Positions 21,659 to 48,165 of a stretch of 64,000 bases of DNA are shown one piece after another (the stretch's first letter is position 1; every line of letters begins with the position of its first letter). Position numbers and translations under genes: made by a program. This DNA is from a virus, in IMG/VR virus record IMGVR_UViG_3300031963_000016, positions 1 through 64,000 of that record; one strand, 5' to 3'. The notes beneath the pieces are model-generated. The model was not told the origin of the DNA. It ran no database searches and worked only from the letters and a program-made list of their open reading frames with translations.

Positions 21659-22204
21659 ATGAAGACAGTAGGAGATAAACTCGATTCATTCGTTGTTACT
21701 GGAGTTCGTCCTGGACAACCACAAGACGCATTTTTTGATATTACGGAGAAATCATTTGAGGGAAAGTGGAAAGTAATCGTTTACTATCCAAAAGATTTTA
21801 CATTCGTATGTCCTACAGAAATTGTAGCATATGATAAATTGTTTCAAGATTTTACAGATCGTGACGCAGTTCTCTTGACAGGTAGCACTGATAATGAGTT
21901 TTGTAAAGTTGAATGGCAAAGATCACATGCTGAATTAAAACAAATTAAACATATTCAATTTGCTGATACTCAGCGTGAGTGGGATAAATCCTTGATCGAT
22001 CAACTTGGTGTGTTCTATAATCCAGCAGGTGCTGCTTTGCGTGCTACATTTATTGTAGATCCAGAGAATGTAATTCAGCATGTGACTGTGAACAATCTAA
22101 ATGTAGGTCGTTCACCTGAAGAGACATTGCGTATCCTTGATGCACTTCAAACTGGCGAGCTATGCGCATGTAATCGTACTGTTGGTGGAGAAACACTTAA
22201 ATGA
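21659..22204 (+). CDS. ahpC: Peroxiredoxin (alkyl hydroperoxide reductase C)
   Basis: YPKDFTFVCPTE, RATFIVDP, LDALQTGELC. Confidence 0.95.
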   Translation: MKTVGDKLDSFVVTGVRPGQPQDAFFDITEKSFEGKWKVIVYYPKDFTFVCPTEIVAYDKLFQDFTDRDAVLLTGSTDNEFCKVEWQRSHAELKQIKHIQFADTQREWDKSLIDQLGVFYNPAGAALRATFIVDPENVIQHVTVNNLNVGRSPEETLRILDALQTGELCACNRTVGGETLK

Positions 22205-22614
22205 TTGATTGTATGATCATTGGAGATAGTATCGCAGTTGGTGTGGCGATGGCTAGACCTGATTGTGTAAGTTATTCTCGTGGTGGATGGAACAGCTGGC
22301 AATGGAATAAAGATTATTTGTCAGTGGCTTCTACTCGTCAGCCAAAAACTTTAATTATTAGTCTGGGTGCTAATGATCATAAGGGTGTTAAAACAGAACA
22401 AGAGTTGCGAAAAATGCGTGCTGCTATAAAAGCAGATCGTGTCTTCTGGATTAGTCCAGGAGCAGAAAGAAAACCTGTTCCTCAAGAAGCAATAGAAAAA
22501 ATTGCTAAAGAATATAATGATGTAGTTCTTCCAAGACCTACTCAACATATGAGTTCTGATGGAATACATCCCACAGGTCGTGGATATAAATTATTAGGAG
22601 ATCAAACAAAATGA
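22201..22614 (+). CDS. SGNH/GDSL-like hydrolase
   Basis: GDSIA, GAND, DGIHP catalytic blocks. Confidence 0.8.
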   Translation: MIDCMIIGDSIAVGVAMARPDCVSYSRGGWNSWQWNKDYLSVASTRQPKTLIISLGANDHKGVKTEQELRKMRAAIKADRVFWISPGAERKPVPQEAIEKIAKEYNDVVLPRPTQHMSSDGIHPTGRGYKLLGDQTK

Positions 22615-23117
22615 GTTTTATTGACTCTGTTAAAGAAGCATTACCAGAATACGCAAAGGATACTAAATTAAATATTGATTCAGTTCTTTTACGTAGTACT
22701 CTAGATGCAGATGAGGCGATGGGTTGTGCAGTTGCTGCATTAGCAGCAACTGGTAATGGTAAGTTATTAAATTTACTACTTGCTGATGCACCATCTGATG
22801 CTACTGCTGCAATGACTGCTGCAAGTTTGATGGCGCAGAACAATGTTTGGTATCCATATGTTGAGATGACGAATGATCCTAATCTAAAAGGATTGCCAGC
22901 ACAATTAAGAATGAATGCCATTACTACTAGTGGTGGTACAACAAAAGGTAGATTTGAAGCGTATTCTCTTGCTGCAAGTATTGTTGGCAAATGTCATTTT
23001 TGTGTGAAGGCACATTATGATGGACTAAAAAGACTAGGTTACACTGTTGAACAATTGCGAGACATTGGACGAATTGCTGCAGTTATGAATGCATGTGCAA
23101 AAGTATTAAATAATTAA
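22611..23117 (+). CDS. ahpD: Alkylhydroperoxidase AhpD (CMD family)
   Basis: LPEYAKDTKLN start, MAQNNVWY, SIVGKCHFCVKAH. Confidence 0.92.
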   Translation: MSFIDSVKEALPEYAKDTKLNIDSVLLRSTLDADEAMGCAVAALAATGNGKLLNLLLADAPSDATAAMTAASLMAQNNVWYPYVEMTNDPNLKGLPAQLRMNAITTSGGTTKGRFEAYSLAASIVGKCHFCVKAHYDGLKRLGYTVEQLRDIGRIAAVMNACAKVLNN

Positions 23118-23175
23118 AATTTTGACAAAAATAACATTTTCAGATAAATTTTTGTCTAAATAGATATAGAAGTAT

Positions 23176-23242
23176 GGATAACCCTGCAAGCAATAGGGTT
23201 ATCCAGAAACTGCTTGACAAATAACCAAATTTAGGGAATAAT
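23176..23242 (+). promoter_or_regulatory. Stem-loop plus sigma70 promoter driving the leader and tRNA array
   Basis: GGATAACCCT/AGGGTTATCC hairpin; TTGACA(23214)-17-AATAAT(23237). Confidence 0.8.
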
Positions 23243-23252
23243 CTCTTCTATT

Positions 23253-23375
23253 ATGAAACTCAGATCGATATCCACTGTAGCAAAGCATTTACCACCAACA
23301 AGTGGTTGGACATGCTCACGCCCACAGTTTGGATATGCCATTGAGAATGATACTGGGGGTTTGGCAAGTAGATAG
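23253..23375 (+). CDS. Putative attenuator leader peptide (40 aa, all 20 amino acids)
   Basis: MKLRSISTVAKHLPPTSGWTCSRPQFGYAIENDTGGLASR*; starts ~10 nt after the -10 box; last codons form the 5' arm of the antiterminator. Confidence 0.65.
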   Translation: MKLRSISTVAKHLPPTSGWTCSRPQFGYAIENDTGGLASR

Positions 23376-23436
23376 AGATACATCTGTATACTTACCAAAC
23401 CCTCTGAGATGAAAATCCAGAGGGTTTTTTGTTTTA
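23355..23436 (+). terminator. Overlapping antiterminator and intrinsic terminator (attenuator)
   Basis: Antiterminator 23355-23370 pairs 23389-23404; terminator CCCTCTGAGAT-GAAA-ATCCAGAGGG 23401-23425 followed by TTTTTTGTTTT. Confidence 0.8.
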
Positions 23437-23463
23437 TTGCTCTTTAAAAATTCGGGATTCTGT

Positions 23464-23539
23464 AGGGGATTCGCCAAGTTGGTAAGGCATCGGATTTTGA
23501 TTCCGACATGCGGTGGTTCGAGTCCATCATCCCCTGCCA
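23464..23539 (+). tRNA. trnQ: tRNA-Gln(UUG)
   Basis: Cloverleaf; loop TT TTG AT; CCA. Confidence 0.95.
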
Positions 23540-23578
23540 AACAAATGTGCATTTGCACGAGGAAGTGTGCATCTGTTT

Positions 23579-23652
23579 GGGGGTATAACTTAGTGGTAAA
23601 GTAGTAGGCTTTTAACCTATTAACCAGAGTTCGATTCTCTGTGCCCCTACCA
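23579..23652 (+). tRNA. trnK: tRNA-Lys(UUU)
   Basis: GTAGG CT TTT AA CCTAT; CCA. Confidence 0.95.
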
Positions 23653-23660
23653 AATTCAGT

Positions 23661-23736
23661 GGTGTCTATAGTGTAGTGGTCTGCACTTCTTGCTGTGAAC
23701 GAGAGAGTATGAGTTCGATCCTCATTAGACACCCCA
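23661..23736 (+). tRNA. trnH: tRNA-His(GUG)
   Basis: CT GTG AA; G-1:C73; CCA. Confidence 0.95.
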
Positions 23737-23737
23737 T

Positions 23738-23813
23738 GCAACTCTAGCTGATGTGGTCATAGCGGTGGTCTGAAGAGCCATTGAAACAGGTTCGATTCCT
23801 GTGGGTTGCACCA
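23738..23813 (+). tRNA. trnF: tRNA-Phe(GAA)
   Basis: CT GAA GA (G37); CCA. Confidence 0.93.
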
Positions 23814-23822
23814 AAAGATTTT

Positions 23823-23897
23823 ACCGATGTAGCTCAGTGGTAGAGCAGTGTCTTGATAAGGCATTGGTCGGTGGTTCAATCCCACTCATCGGTACCA
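23823..23897 (+). tRNA. trnI: tRNA-Ile(GAU)
   Basis: TT GAT AA; CCA. Confidence 0.95.
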
Positions 23898-23903
23898 AGA
23901 TAC

Positions 23904-23978
23904 GCTTCGTTAACTCAGCGGTAGAGTGTCTCCCTTACAAGGAGAAGGTCGGCAGTTCGATCCTGTCACGAAGCACCA
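23904..23978 (+). tRNA. trnV: tRNA-Val(UAC)
   Basis: TCTCC CT TAC AA GGAGA; CCA. Confidence 0.95.
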
Positions 23979-23983
23979 ATACT

Positions 23984-24057
23984 GGGGGATTAGTTAAATG
24001 GGATAACATTGGCTTTGCAAGTCAAGATTGAGAGTTCGATTCTCTCATCCTCCACCA
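23984..24057 (+). tRNA. trnA: tRNA-Ala(UGC)
   Basis: TT TGC AA; CCA. Confidence 0.93.
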
Positions 24058-24058
24058 T

Positions 24059-24133
24059 ACCCGATTGGTGAAATGAATATCACATCTTGCTACGAACGAG
24101 AAGTTGGGAGTTTGATTCTCTCATTGGGTGCCA
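24059..24133 (+). tRNA. trnR: tRNA-Arg(ACG)
   Basis: CT ACG AA; atypical T-loop TTTGATT; CCA. Confidence 0.9.
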
Positions 24134-24140
24134 AAATTAT

Positions 24141-24232
24141 GGAGAGTAATGCAGGTGCGTTGGTGCGCCGACCAGCCTTGAAAACTGGGTTCTCAGAAAT
24201 GGGATGGGGTTCGACTCCTCTGCTCTCCGCCA
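24141..24232 (+). tRNA. trnS: tRNA-Ser(UGA)
   Basis: CT TGA AA; long variable arm; atypical D region; G73-CCA. Confidence 0.88.
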
Positions 24233-24268
24233 TTATACATACATAAGTAGATAACAAAGGAGATACTT

Positions 24269-24841
24269 ATGAATTTAGATGTTGATCAAAAAATTGTTGG
24301 TGACATGCCACTAGAGTTAATTAATAATCTTCTTAGTTCAATTGATGAAGAAGATTGGTATGCTGGTGATTATCGTCAACGTGTTGGTAATATGAGTGAT
24401 TGTAATTCAATACCAATTTATCACACTCCTTTGTGCGCTTCTGGTAGATGTGATATGGAACCAATCAGAAGTATACGCAAAGAAAAAATGTACAATAAGT
24501 TTTTTCCACTTGTTGAGCCGATATTAGAAGAGTTAAGAAAGTATTATGAGTTTAGACAGTACTCTTGTTTTATGGCAAGATTACATCCAGGTGGAATAAT
24601 TGGTGAACATATTGATCGTGGTAGTTTCTTAGAACTCTGTCATCGTGTGCATGTACCACTAAAATCTAATTCAAAAATAAGATACGTAATTGATGGAAAA
24701 TCTTATTATTGGGAACCAGGAAAGATTTATGAGTTTAACAATACTAAAATGCATGGCGTATATAATGAATCAGATGAACATCGAATTCATTTAGTTGTAA
24801 ATTTGTATAATCTTACTGACGAACAACTAGAAAAAGATTAA
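24269..24841 (+). CDS. Aspartyl/asparaginyl beta-hydroxylase-like 2OG-Fe(II) oxygenase inside the tRNA array
   Basis: ARLHPGG.I.EHID, RVHVPL, NNTKMHGVYN, RIHLVVN. Confidence 0.85.
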   Translation: MNLDVDQKIVGDMPLELINNLLSSIDEEDWYAGDYRQRVGNMSDCNSIPIYHTPLCASGRCDMEPIRSIRKEKMYNKFFPLVEPILEELRKYYEFRQYSCFMARLHPGGIIGEHIDRGSFLELCHRVHVPLKSNSKIRYVIDGKSYYWEPGKIYEFNNTKMHGVYNESDEHRIHLVVNLYNLTDEQLEKD

Positions 24842-24842
24842 T

Positions 24843-24930
24843 GGAGAGTTGGCAGAGTGGTTAATGCAGCAGTTTGCTAAACTGTCGTTTCGAAAGAGGC
24901 GCATAGGTTCGAATCCTATACTCTCCGCCA
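24843..24930 (+). tRNA. trnS: tRNA-Ser(GCU)
   Basis: TT GCT AA; long variable arm; CCA. Confidence 0.95.
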
Positions 24931-24934
24931 AATT

Positions 24935-25026
24935 AGTGGGTTAGTTTAACGGTAAAACAGCGGATTTATATCCCGTGTGCAACAGATAATTGGCCAATAT
25001 GGGTTCGACTCCCATACCCACTACCA
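24935..25026 (+). tRNA. Atypical tRNA with UAU anticodon (Ile-AUA) and 22-nt extra region
   Basis: AGTGGGT/ACCCACT acceptor, D arm, loop TT TAT AT (24965-24971), TTCGACT T-loop, A73-CCA. Confidence 0.78.
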
Positions 25027-25031
25027 GATAT

Positions 25032-25113
25032 GCCCCTGTGGACAAATTGGTAAAGTCACCTCTCTCAAACAGAGGAGTATGATATCTCCGTTCGAATCGG
25101 AGCAGGGGCACCA
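25032..25113 (+). tRNA. trnL: tRNA-Leu(CAA)
   Basis: CCTCT CT CAA AC AGAGG; CCA. Confidence 0.93.
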
Positions 25114-25114
25114 G

Positions 25115-25143
25115 TTGACATGCAAGATTGTTTGTGGTATAAT
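25115..25143 (+). promoter_or_regulatory. Internal sigma70 promoter in the tRNA array
   Basis: TTGACA-17-TATAAT (perfect consensus). Confidence 0.8.
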
Positions 25144-26829: not shown

Positions 26830-27044
26830 TGATAAGGAAAACTAAAATGTCAGACAATACACCTTTAACATTTAAAGAACAGTGGGAACAAAAGAAACTA
26901 CTTAAACGTGTTAAGAAGAAAGCGAAGAAAAATCTTCAAGCACAAGGATTTGGCAGAAGGGAAGCAACGAAACAAGTAAATGCTGCTTTAAATAGAATCT
27001 CTTCTAACAAACCTATTAAACGTGCAGCAGGTAGAGGTGGATAA
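26829..27044 (+). CDS. Small Lys/Arg-rich protein (start may be 26848)
   Basis: Highly basic ORF ending KRAAGRGG; AAGGA RBS before 26848. Confidence 0.6.
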   Translation: MIRKTKMSDNTPLTFKEQWEQKKLLKRVKKKAKKNLQAQGFGRREATKQVNAALNRISSNKPIKRAAGRGG

Positions 27045-27268
27045 TGAGTGATGGTGGTAAAGGTAGCAAGCCAAGACCATTTTCAGTTGATCAAAAAACT
27101 TTTGATAATAACTGGGATGCTATTTTTGGTAAGAAAATAGATAATACAGGTGTGTTAAAAAATGAGTATCAAGATATTTTGTCAACAGAAGATTGTTTTG
27201 AAATCGAAGACAGAATCACTAGATATAATGAAGAAACTCAAGAAGTAAAGAAAGTAGTATCTCGATAG
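27044..27268 (+). CDS. Small hypothetical protein
   Basis: MSDGGKGSKPRP...NNWDAIFGK; 3' end overlaps tRNA-Trp. Confidence 0.65.
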   Translation: MSDGGKGSKPRPFSVDQKTFDNNWDAIFGKKIDNTGVLKNEYQDILSTEDCFEIEDRITRYNEETQEVKKVVSR

Positions 27269-46308: not shown

Positions 46309-46961
46309 TGAAAACATTTATACATCATGATTTACCCAAACTTGAACGTGATACAAAACCCGATGGAACTCGTTTATACAAAACGCCATCGGGTTTGTCC
46401 TATCCAAGCGTCACAACGATTACAGGATTGCTTAACAAGAAAGCAATTTTTGAGTGGCGAAAAAGAGTCGGAGAAGAAGAAGCAAACCGAGTATCATCAA
46501 GAGCATCAAGCAGAGGAACGAAAGTTCACCAACTCTGTGAAGACTATCTCCGTGGAAAACTTAATGAACCAGATATCTTTCATAAAGAAATGTTCGATTC
46601 AATTCGACCACTACTCGACCAAATCGACAACATTCACTGCTTGGAAGATCCACTCTATTCTGACCATCTACAAGTCGCTGGAACAGTTGACTGTATTGCA
46701 GAGTTCCAAGGTAAACTTAGTGTTATAGATTTTAAGACTTCTTCTCGTCCTAAAAGTAGAGATGACATTCACAATTATTTTATGCAAACATCAGCATATG
46801 CAGTCGCCTTTGAGGAACGAACAGGAATTCCTGTAGGACGTATGGTAATTATCATGGCTGTTGAAAATGATGATCCACGTTGGTTTATCGAGAAACGAGA
46901 TAACTGGGTTGCAGGATTTAAAAAACTTAGACTTGACTACAAGCATAAGTATAATGTATAA
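46308..46961 (+). CDS. PD-(D/E)xK exonuclease (Cas4-like fold)
   Basis: YPSVTT, RGTKVH, AGTVDCIA, IDFKTS, QTSAYA. Confidence 0.88.
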   Translation: MKTFIHHDLPKLERDTKPDGTRLYKTPSGLSYPSVTTITGLLNKKAIFEWRKRVGEEEANRVSSRASSRGTKVHQLCEDYLRGKLNEPDIFHKEMFDSIRPLLDQIDNIHCLEDPLYSDHLQVAGTVDCIAEFQGKLSVIDFKTSSRPKSRDDIHNYFMQTSAYAVAFEERTGIPVGRMVIIMAVENDDPRWFIEKRDNWVAGFKKLRLDYKHKYNV

Positions 46962-46962
46962 T
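46933..46962 (+). promoter_or_regulatory. Sigma70-type promoter for tmRNA
   Basis: TTGACT-18-TATAAT. Confidence 0.6.
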
Positions 46963-46963
46963 A

Positions 46964-47280
46964 GAGGAATTGCTGTATGAAGCGATGAGAAAGGTGTTCT
47001 GGACGAGGGTTCGATTCCCTCCACCTCCACCAGAAGCATACTAGGACTGGCGTAAGCCATCGTGGGTATAGTTCCTTCCGAGCCACGGATTTAAGTATGC
47101 TTCTGATGGGGGTGACTAGGTTTCGACAGGGCAAGTAGTAACAAAGTGGACAGCACGACAGGCGATCGTCGTAAATGAAGCAAATAAAGTAAACGCAAAT
47201 GATGAGGTTTACGCACTAGCTGCCTAATTAAAAGGTAAGCAGGAGTTTCGGTGGGTTTCTTGGCAACAGAATAACCCACC
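46964..47280 (+). ncRNA. ssrA: Circularly permuted two-piece tmRNA; tag ANDEVYALAA
   Basis: Acceptor piece ending TTCGATTCCCTCCACCTCCACCA (47032), 75-nt spacer, coding piece starting GGGGGTG (47108) with G3:U70, tag 47195-47227. Confidence 0.93.
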
Positions 47281-47295
47281 ACTTATGGAGACACA

Positions 47296-48165
47296 ATGGA
47301 AAAATTTTATGTAGATGATTGTCCAAAAGAATTACCAGTAGCAGATTGGATTAAAAGTAAAATAAAATGGAGAGAAGCAACTAATGATGTCATTGCTTCA
47401 TCACCATCTGCAAAATATATGGACATGGTATTTGAATTCACAGGTGATCTGGATGGATTAAAAAAATCTGTGAGTGATGCATTAAGTACTTATGGTTTTT
47501 TTGGATGGAGAACATCAGTAGGTGATGAAAAGAATTATGGTGGATATTCTATAACTTATAATCCAAATCTACAATATGATGACCAGGATATTCATCAACA
47601 CACACTTGGTACTAAATTAAACGCACCAAGTGATTTCTATGCAGGATCGTCAGTAAATCACACGTATTTAAAAAATAGTTATCTTGATGGCATGTCATTC
47701 ACAGAGTTTACTCCAGCAGCAAAGATTGGCTACATGGGAAAATTATTAGAAGATATAAACAGTAGAATTACAATCACAAGAAGCAGATTAGGAATAGTTA
47801 AAGGATCTGAAGTCTCAGATGAAAATAGATATCATATAGATTCAGAAGTGTTTGAATTATGTAGATTGAATATTCCTATTATTGCAAATGAATGTTTTGC
47901 TTTTCAATTTCAAGGTAGATTACCATATGTTTTAGAAGAAGGAAGAGCATATACTTGGCAAACAGAATTACCCCATAGAGTTTATTGTCATAAGAAAACT
48001 AGTCTTGACAGAGCAAATATGGTGATAGGATTATCTCCTTGGTTAAGTTACGATAAACAAGAGAGATATTGGTACGCTAATGAGTTTTATGGAAAGAAAC
48101 ACCCATTTGATATGATTATAGATGGAGATGTTACTGATAAAATAAAATTTTTAGGTGCCAGATAA
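47296..48165 (+). CDS. Hypothetical protein, possible 2OG-Fe(II)/cupin oxygenase
   Basis: YHID...RLNIPI...PHRV pattern resembles AspH-like proteins. Confidence 0.6.
   Translation: MEKFYVDDCPKELPVADWIKSKIKWREATNDVIASSPSAKYMDMVFEFTGDLDGLKKSVSDALSTYGFFGWRTSVGDEKNYGGYSITYNPNLQYDDQDIHQHTLGTKLNAPSDFYAGSSVNHTYLKNSYLDGMSFTEFTPAAKIGYMGKLLEDINSRITITRSRLGIVKGSEVSDENRYHIDSEVFELCRLNIPIIANECFAFQFQGRLPYVLEEGRAYTWQTELPHRVYCHKKTSLDRANMVIGLSPWLSYDKQERYWYANEFYGKKHPFDMIIDGDVTDKIKFLGAR

Follow-up and report, generated by a model that had tools for sequence, protein, structure and literature searches.

How does a phage that carries a large set of transfer RNA (tRNA) genes decide when to transcribe them? The purpose of such genes is itself debated, the main ideas being codon compensation and the replacement of tRNAs lost to host defences (PMC10264068, PMC11555353). 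We consider this question for a DNA stretch of 64,000 nucleotides (nt), positions 1 to 64,000 of IMG/VR virus record IMGVR_UViG_3300031963_000016, hereafter called the window, which is part of the complete 161.7-kb record of a T4-like virus (gp23 match), an uncultured lake phage. To our knowledge, the regulation of phage tRNA arrays is essentially unknown. Our analysis concerns a self-contained element of ~185 nt that heads the tRNA array of this phage and contains a 40-codon open reading frame (ORF), the leader ORF. We consider it probable that the element is a ribosome-mediated leader-peptide attenuator that monitors how well every amino acid is decoded and controls the first block of the array.

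Coordinates are those of the window, and the promoters, hairpins and genes given below lie on its plus strand. A preliminary description of the locus, made from the sequence alone, had named a promoter, a near-leaderless ORF with all 20 amino acids in its first 33 codons, a pairing between the last codons of this ORF and a downstream segment, and an intrinsic terminator just before the first tRNA gene. All four could be read directly. Promoter P2 (TTGACA-17-AATAAT, 23214-23242; -35 box 23214-23219, -10 box 23237-23242) scores 11/12, the second-best value in an 11-kb promoter scan. The leader ORF (23253-23375) has 40 codons followed by TAG (23373-23375); its ATG lies 10 nt after the -10 box, giving a predicted 5′ leader of only 3-4 nt, and is preceded by no Shine-Dalgarno sequence. 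Its peptide contains 20 of 20 amino acids, complete by codon 33, and has no Pfam family match. The last codons of the ORF form the 5′ arm (23355-23370) of an antiterminator hairpin (23355-23404, -25.7 kcal/mol) by pairing with 23389-23404, and the stop codon sits in the distal stem of this hairpin. Eight nucleotides (23397-23404) are common to the antiterminator 3′ arm and to the intrinsic terminator (23397-23435), which consists of a stem at 23397-23427 (core 23400-23424, -16.9 kcal/mol) and a T-run, TTTTTTGTTTT, at 23425-23435; a simple terminator scan overlooked it because the stem is bulged. The gene for tRNA-Gln, the first of 28 tRNAs called by ARAGORN, starts at 23464, 28 nt after the T-run. 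The 192-nt transcript is more structured than shuffled versions of itself (z = -5.2), and its minimum-energy fold has the antiterminator and not the terminator.

Relatives of the element were recovered from viral contigs of many freshwater metagenomes with two short probes, a 17-mer of the switch and a 16-mer of the terminator, and with a peptide-profile search. The leader family comprises more than 100 loci on uncultured phage contigs, which reduce to 58 ORF-to-terminator sequences and 52 peptides (34-45 residues) once duplicates are removed. Reading frames were compared in 55 nucleotide variants, promoters in 49 upstream regions, helix covariation in 49 sequences, and the distance to the array in 61 terminator-tRNA spacers, all of them distinct. 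In every locus with enough flanking sequence, the next gene on the same strand is the first tRNA of an array, either tRNA-Gln(UUG) or, in one clade, tRNA-Trp. Where the sequence continues for 5 kb or more downstream, the array has 24-29 tRNAs, and 0-3 of the 20 amino acids are without a tRNA in it. The phage collection that we searched yielded no relative of the region, of a large neighbouring protein or of the leader peptide, that is, no cultured relative. In Aeromonas phage phiAS5, one cultured T4-like phage with a tRNA array, no comparable ORF and terminator stand before the first tRNA, and the device is therefore lineage-specific.

The preliminary description had proposed that related phages be examined for leader length, codon diversity and stem covariation in the face of peptide divergence, and the family bears it out on length (34-45 codons), on the amino-acid set (see below) and on both helices. 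In the antiterminator, 89.5% of cells are paired and six pairs have changed on both sides, pairing values that exceed all shuffled and all slid controls; in one case, the 5′ arm has gained a T and the 3′ arm a matching A. For the terminator, 98.1% of cells are paired, with 32 compensatory cells (G-C to A-U or C-G). The 8-nt overlap between the two helices is invariant in relatives, and the mean hairpin energies among variants are -22.3 kcal/mol for the antiterminator and -17.0 kcal/mol for the terminator. All 58 variants place the first base of the stop codon 10-20 nt into the antiterminator 5′ arm, most often at 14 or 17 nt, and the T-run follows 48-57 nt after the stop. This is the geometry needed if a ribosome at the stop codon is to cause termination and one stalled upstream is to permit read-through, and with the RNA kept from pairing as far as 12 nt beyond the first stop-codon base, all 58 fold into the terminator. 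The element thus has the terminator between ORF and regulated genes, the mutually exclusive antiterminator helix and the placement of the ORF end that characterize attenuators. It has no runs of regulatory codons, containing instead about one codon for each of 19-20 amino acids.

Several lines of evidence suggest that the leader ORF is translated. All 55 variants keep its frame free of stops, against an average of 2.6-3.3 stops in the other frames, and insertions and deletions in the body of the ORF come in multiples of 3. Of 49 upstream regions, 36 have a gap of only 6-7 nt between the end of the -10 box and the ATG, which places the transcription start on the A of the AUG and predicts a leaderless messenger RNA (mRNA); a gap of 10-11 nt is seen in seven of the 49, the window among them. 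Variants without an ATG-adjacent promoter mostly have an AAGGA-type, Shine-Dalgarno-like motif upstream of the ORF.

The sequence of the peptide itself appears to be weakly constrained. Sites in the leader alignment vary almost equally at codon positions 1, 2 and 3 (29, 26 and 33 variable sites), and the 3′ end of the ORF is read in at least three frames (...GGLASR, ...GGFGK and ...EGLDKK) over a conserved RNA arm. The relative L001, with an element 77% identical to that of the window and an ORF again of 40 codons and all 20 amino acids, exemplifies this pattern: Cys, Asp and Gln occupy different codons, and the same nucleotides at the 3′ end are read in another frame. The most conserved part of the ORF is central, where a small hairpin (23291-23306, -5.4 kcal/mol in the window) is followed by an invariant TGG...CACGC stretch. 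This hairpin is the only helix that RNAalifold predicts from 35 diverse leaders, with compensatory changes at five of five pairs. The coincidence of central conservation with a covarying hairpin and invariant nucleotides indicates constraint at the level of RNA, and the hairpin might conceivably serve as a polymerase pause site that synchronizes ribosome and polymerase.

Is the complete set of amino acids more than an accident? For the window taken singly, the comparison with chance that had been recommended did not favour the initial emphasis on this feature. Twenty types in 40 residues occur in 0.4% of 40-residue windows of the phage's own proteins and at a rate of 0.7-1% under random models. 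Besides the leader ORF, two of the 89 short ORFs in the window hold 20 types, three in all; both lie over tRNA genes, which are balanced in composition and so tend to yield a wide range of codons. Single-sequence content is therefore not beyond chance, and the case rests on the relatives. The use of 32 distinct codons, with splitting of isoacceptors, had also been stressed; the count is correct, but it is what the peptide and the codon usage of the phage lead one to expect (simulated mean 30.0, P = 0.20). Codons that are rare in the phage are enriched about 3-fold in leaders (18% versus 5.9%), an excess for which the G-rich RNA arm accounts in part.

The relatives give a different answer from the single sequence. 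Despite a median pairwise identity of 51% and a minimum of 12%, all 52 distinct peptides contain 19 or 20 amino-acid types, and 27 contain 20; the missing type is Val in 22 leaders, Asp in two and Cys in one. Completeness extends to the shortest members, with 20 types in one leader of 37 codons and 19 in those of 34-35 codons. His, Trp and Tyr are present in exactly one copy in 52 of 52 leaders, whereas Cys averages 1.0 and Ala 1.65 copies. With the exception of Trp, which is fixed, single-copy residues relocate: Cys occurs in eight alignment columns, Tyr in five, Asp in four and His in three, and leaders that lose the usual cysteine of a W-T-C sequence have a Cys in their N-terminal part instead, with one exception. 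Independent draws from the composition of the family give 19 or more types with a probability of 1-10% per peptide. In a test that retains the phylogenetic pattern and the variability of each site, 171 derived residues were shuffled among substitution events in 5000 trials. Missing types summed over all leaders numbered 25, against 64 ± 9 in the shuffles (minimum 29); none of the 5000 matched the observed total, and none left every peptide with at most one missing type. The same kind of test on a smaller, first set of leaders had given P ~0.003. Amino-acid completeness of the leader is a selected property.

With the stop codon lying in the arm throughout the family, helices that covary and an amino-acid set that is complete in relatives, sequence comparison supports the proposal of the preliminary description that the locus works by attenuation. 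From these data we infer the polarity of the switch and what it senses as follows. P2 would give rise to an mRNA that starts at the AUG of the 40-codon ORF or 3-4 nt before it. A ribosome that reaches the stop codon smoothly would cover the antiterminator 5′ arm and leave the shared 8 nt to join the terminator, so that transcription would end 28 nt before tRNA-Gln. If the ribosome is delayed within roughly the first 30 codons, the antiterminator would form first and polymerase would enter the tRNA genes; read-through would likewise be predicted if no ribosome is loaded. As the ORF has roughly a single codon for each amino acid, read-through would rise whenever one of these is decoded slowly, whether through shortage, cleavage or lack of charging of its tRNA. 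Phage tRNAs made in this way would bring decoding back to speed and close the switch, which would then act as a negative-feedback gauge. By this mechanism the phage would probably raise its own tRNA output whenever any type of codon is decoded too slowly.

A number of observations weigh against such an attenuator or limit what it could control. Folding, another check that had been suggested, gave a mixed result: the antiterminator is present in the minimum-energy fold of the window, but without a ribosome the equilibrium fold contains the terminator in 24 of 58 variants, and 26 of the 58 follow the model exactly. The model therefore relies on the energies of isolated hairpins and on co-transcriptional order, in which the antiterminator is made and folded first. 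If only codons that precede the arm by 12 nt or more are counted, leaders encode 16-20 amino-acid types (mostly 17-19); the window has its Glu, Asn and Asp codons 4-12 nt from the arm, and stalls there might not free the antiterminator. Twenty-two of 52 leaders have no Val codon, yet their arrays include tRNA-Val, and the idea that Val-less leaders pair with arrays lacking tRNA-Val was rejected, tRNA-Val(UAC) being present either way. The anticodons of the array could read 35 of the 40 leader codons, as compared with 86% of all phage codons, which makes the proposition that leader codons mirror array anticodons uninformative. In the window, an ATG located 10 nt past the -10 box and the lack of a Shine-Dalgarno sequence mean that translation initiation may be weak.

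Promoters other than P2 count against exclusive control by the switch. Upstream of it, the sigma-70-like promoter P1 (TTGACA-17-TAAATT, 23122-23150; 10/12 in the promoter scan) would produce transcripts with ~100 nt ahead of the ORF and no Shine-Dalgarno sequence in that stretch. These would not be leaderless, and transcripts from P1 or from upstream genes would probably read through unregulated. Downstream, 25 of 61 spacers have a sigma-70-like promoter between terminator and first tRNA, 18 of them scoring at least 10/12, and in these loci the switch can only add to a constitutive level. The other 36, including that of the window, are short (28-48 nt) and have no promoter between terminator and tRNA; the scan found no promoter-like site at 23436-23463, between the window terminator and tRNA-Gln. 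The array also has internal consensus promoters, the next at 25115-25143 (12/12) and others elsewhere, so that only the first block, from Gln to Leu(CAA), is necessarily gated.

Could the same anatomy serve another purpose? One alternative, which we regard as unlikely, is that an identical RNA switch reads general translation status, such as ribosome availability, ribosome-targeting toxins or antibiotics, or the coupling of transcription to translation, with amino-acid make-up being secondary. A leader in which each amino acid is encoded about once, with none of the tandem runs to which classical attenuators owe their sensitivity, would suit such a device, as would the dispensability of Val, and PMC10274678 describes a bacterial attenuator, whiB7, that answers ribosome-targeting drugs as well as starvation. 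A pure gauge of speed or occupancy, however, needs no set composition, yet single-copy Cys, His, Tyr and Asp have relocated in a way that none of 5000 shuffles reproduced, and leaders of only 34-37 codons still have 19-20 types. It is less probable still that P2, ORF and terminator form an autonomous micro-gene for a functional 40-residue peptide, the array being transcribed from other promoters and the extra hairpin merely stabilizing the 3′ end. Such a gene would fit the 25 variants with a promoter after the terminator and a fairly conserved central motif, HLPLLSGW.C.R...GY, but not the equal variation of the three codon positions or the reading of the C-terminus in several frames while the RNA arms are conserved. 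Central conservation coincides, moreover, with the covarying RNA hairpin and the invariant nucleotide stretch, and the relocation of single-copy residues is unlike the evolution of a folded or binding peptide. The invariance of the 8-nt helix overlap and of the stop codon within the arm, the 36 spacers with no promoter and the lack of a Pfam match likewise argue against it.

The positional invariance of Trp and Arg, usually with Pro nearby (W.[CS].R[PT]), raises the question of whether the leader is instead a nascent-peptide arrest sequence of the TnaC, SecM or Erm type, in which a conserved motif stalls the ribosome upon encountering a small molecule and the stall sets the switch. We find this very improbable, in that the motif region is also constrained as RNA, the clade that precedes tRNA-Trp lacks most of the motif yet retains 19 types in 34-35 codons, and arrest leaves completeness unexplained. 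Least credible of all is that the unit from P2 to the terminator yields a small non-coding RNA of ~185 nt in which the ORF is fortuitous. Strong structure, the missing Shine-Dalgarno sequence in the window and the chance occurrence of 20 types in ORFs over compositionally balanced RNA genes would be compatible with it, but the leader frame is open in every variant while other frames are closed, its indels preserve the frame, and in most variants its start codon either coincides with the predicted start of transcription or follows a Shine-Dalgarno-like motif. A search with cmscan of 22600-24300, at E values up to 10, returned only tRNAs and chance-level matches, with no Rfam family, T-boxes included, assigned to the element.

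Among known systems, the closest in its working is the upstream ORF (uORF) attenuator of whiB7 (wblC) in mycobacteria and other Actinobacteria, in which antiterminator and terminator structures form as alternatives downstream of a uORF and a stall within the uORF leads to read-through (PMC10274678). Many different deficiencies of amino acids, tRNAs or synthetases activate it; the composition of the uORF sets which amino acids are sensed, a single Trp codon sufficing to detect a lack of Trp, and basal read-through is higher when the start codon is lost (PMC10274678). The uORF of M. smegmatis contains 19 of 20 amino acids, all but Cys (PMC10274678). The statement in the preliminary description that no equivalent was known is therefore too strong: a general stalling sensor has been published, and it demonstrates that single-codon logic works. 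The two systems, which we compare by description and not by sequence, differ in that whiB7 is cellular and its attenuator gates a transcription-factor gene, whereas the phage leader gates tRNA genes. Ala enrichment is universal among whiB7 uORFs, and the M. tuberculosis uORF is missing several amino acids; completeness is thus not a conserved feature of that system (PMC10274678). In contrast, the phage leader is shorter (34-45 codons), mostly leaderless and phage-borne, and is under measurable selection for every amino acid. With tRNA genes downstream in a T4-like phage and an Ala content that is not raised, it is whiB7-like in its working and not a member of the whiB7/wblC family.

Comparison with two further classes of leader RNA is also instructive. 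T-box leaders resemble the phage element in setting a terminator against an antiterminator, in reporting tRNA charging and in gating translation-related genes. Unlike it, they bind one specific uncharged tRNA directly and need no ribosome, and the phage region has no T-box match. In the attenuators of amino-acid operons, including trpL, hisL, pheL, leuL and the multivalent thrL and ilv leaders, a short translated leader precedes competing terminator and antiterminator helices, and the position of the ribosome selects between them. The phage element shares the translated leader, the competing helices and a regulated gene product that would relieve the stall. Amino-acid operon attenuators have codon runs for one to three amino acids, regulate biosynthetic enzymes, and terminate when untranslated, through 1:2 pairing; the phage leader has about one codon for each of 20 amino acids, stands before tRNA genes, and is predicted to read through by default when untranslated. 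Leader-peptide attenuation of such operons is modelled in PMC1183508.

Functionally, the nearest parallel is a cryptic long tRNA operon of Anabaena, which according to the primary reports has ~26 tRNA genes, is induced under translational stress (PMC8421152) and is repressed under standard conditions, with TrcR as transcriptional repressor (PMC10272220). It is likewise an accessory array that is off by default and on when translation is impaired. Its control differs, relying on the repressor protein TrcR, and the words attenuat-, leader and terminator do not occur in PMC8421152. Literature searches for attenuator control of tRNA arrays, in phages or otherwise, found no such paper. What is new here is thus the tRNA-gene target, the phage carrier and measurable selection for a complete set in ~40 codons, a general stalling sensor being already known in whiB7.

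The block that would be gated in the window (23464-25113; ARAGORN, Rfam) consists of tRNAs Gln, Lys, His, Phe, Ile, Val, Ala and Arg, a hydroxylase-like ORF of 190 amino acids, and tRNAs Ser, Ile(UAU) and Leu(CAA). The ORF (24269-24841) belongs to the Asp/Asn beta-hydroxylase family (PF05118, E = 2e-15) and would be co-transcribed with the gated tRNAs. Right after tRNA-Arg, 24141-24228 (+) gives a weak tRNA-Sec-like Rfam match of 35 bits (gathering score 47) that ARAGORN did not call; it may represent a 29th, atypical long-arm tRNA or a tRNA-like RNA. No second leader precedes tRNA-Trp in the window, where the gap at 26830-27258 has ordinary small ORFs only. The phage also encodes a transfer-messenger RNA (tmRNA; 46940-47318, ARAGORN) with the tag peptide ANDEVYALAA, which together with a complete tRNA set points to heavy investment in sustained translation.

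Spacers between terminator and array have features of their own. Immediately 5′ of tRNA-Gln, in 23436-23463 and in all relatives, stands a conserved block, TGTTCTTTAAAAATTCGGGATTCTGT or ...TTTTACAATTC..., which is kept even where a promoter has been inserted upstream and is probably a pre-tRNA leader or processing signal and not a promoter. Long spacers contain one or two tandem cassettes composed of a CCCTAC...GTAGGG hairpin and a TTGACT-17-TATAAT promoter (loci L160, L155, L236, L253 and L209). In several long-spacer relatives, L160, L236 and L248 among them, a very stable UUCG-capped hairpin lies just before the tRNA.

A similar combination of hairpin and promoter precedes the leader. Directly 5′ of the -35 box of P2 is a stem-loop without a U-tract (23176-23205; 10 or 11 perfect pairs, -16.7 kcal/mol), which is kept in relatives with other stem sequences (CCTTAC/GTAAGG, CCCTTG/CAAGGG, GATAAG/CTTATC), and the same module of a hairpin and a TTGAC promoter recurs in the long terminator-tRNA spacers of relatives. 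It resembles the promoter-early stem-loop cassettes of T4-type phages, and the spacer cassettes look like mobile modules of that kind. Just 5′ of this hairpin, at 23157-23164, is the motif TAAATAGA, near-invariant in relatives; as a repeated promoter motif it was rejected, with three copies in the window against 5.7 expected. Some relatives carry TATAAATAGA in its place, and this contains TATAAATA, a sequence that resembles the T4 late-promoter box. At the position of P1, the alignment has a promoter in most relatives, in the form TTGACT-17-TAAGAT or TAAAAT.

Farther upstream, the direct neighbours (21659-23117) are a peroxiredoxin-like ORF, so named from sequence only, an SGNH-like ORF and an AhpD/CMD-family ORF that ends at 23117. 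At least 594 confirmed stretches of the AhpD-like gene were found in freshwater phage contigs, and 80 loci, ~80-89% identical, were kept. The element is present in only one of these 80, L001. The AhpD-like gene was therefore rejected as a linked partner of the leader.

What would such an element mean for the phage? Tentatively, and with somewhat less conviction than we attach to the attenuator itself, we propose that the leader is a minimal test message, evolved to contain a codon for each amino acid, with which the phage would monitor the whole decoding capacity of its host in real time. It would be an inducible and self-limiting counter-defence, based on an attenuator of the trp type, that would turn on the complete phage tRNA set upon depletion of any tRNA species. 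Possible causes of such depletion are host shut-off, starvation and anti-phage defences that cleave tRNAs, among them anticodon nucleases, PARIS and retron effectors. As a compact and self-contained unit, the element could also serve as a sensor of decoding stress. If the attenuator reading is correct, the leader would offer a clear example from nature of a ~40-residue peptide selected to contain every amino acid, and leader-peptide attenuation would extend from biosynthetic operons to tRNA genes themselves. At least some phages would then express their tRNAs on demand, and the leader would be a direct read-out of what triggers them.

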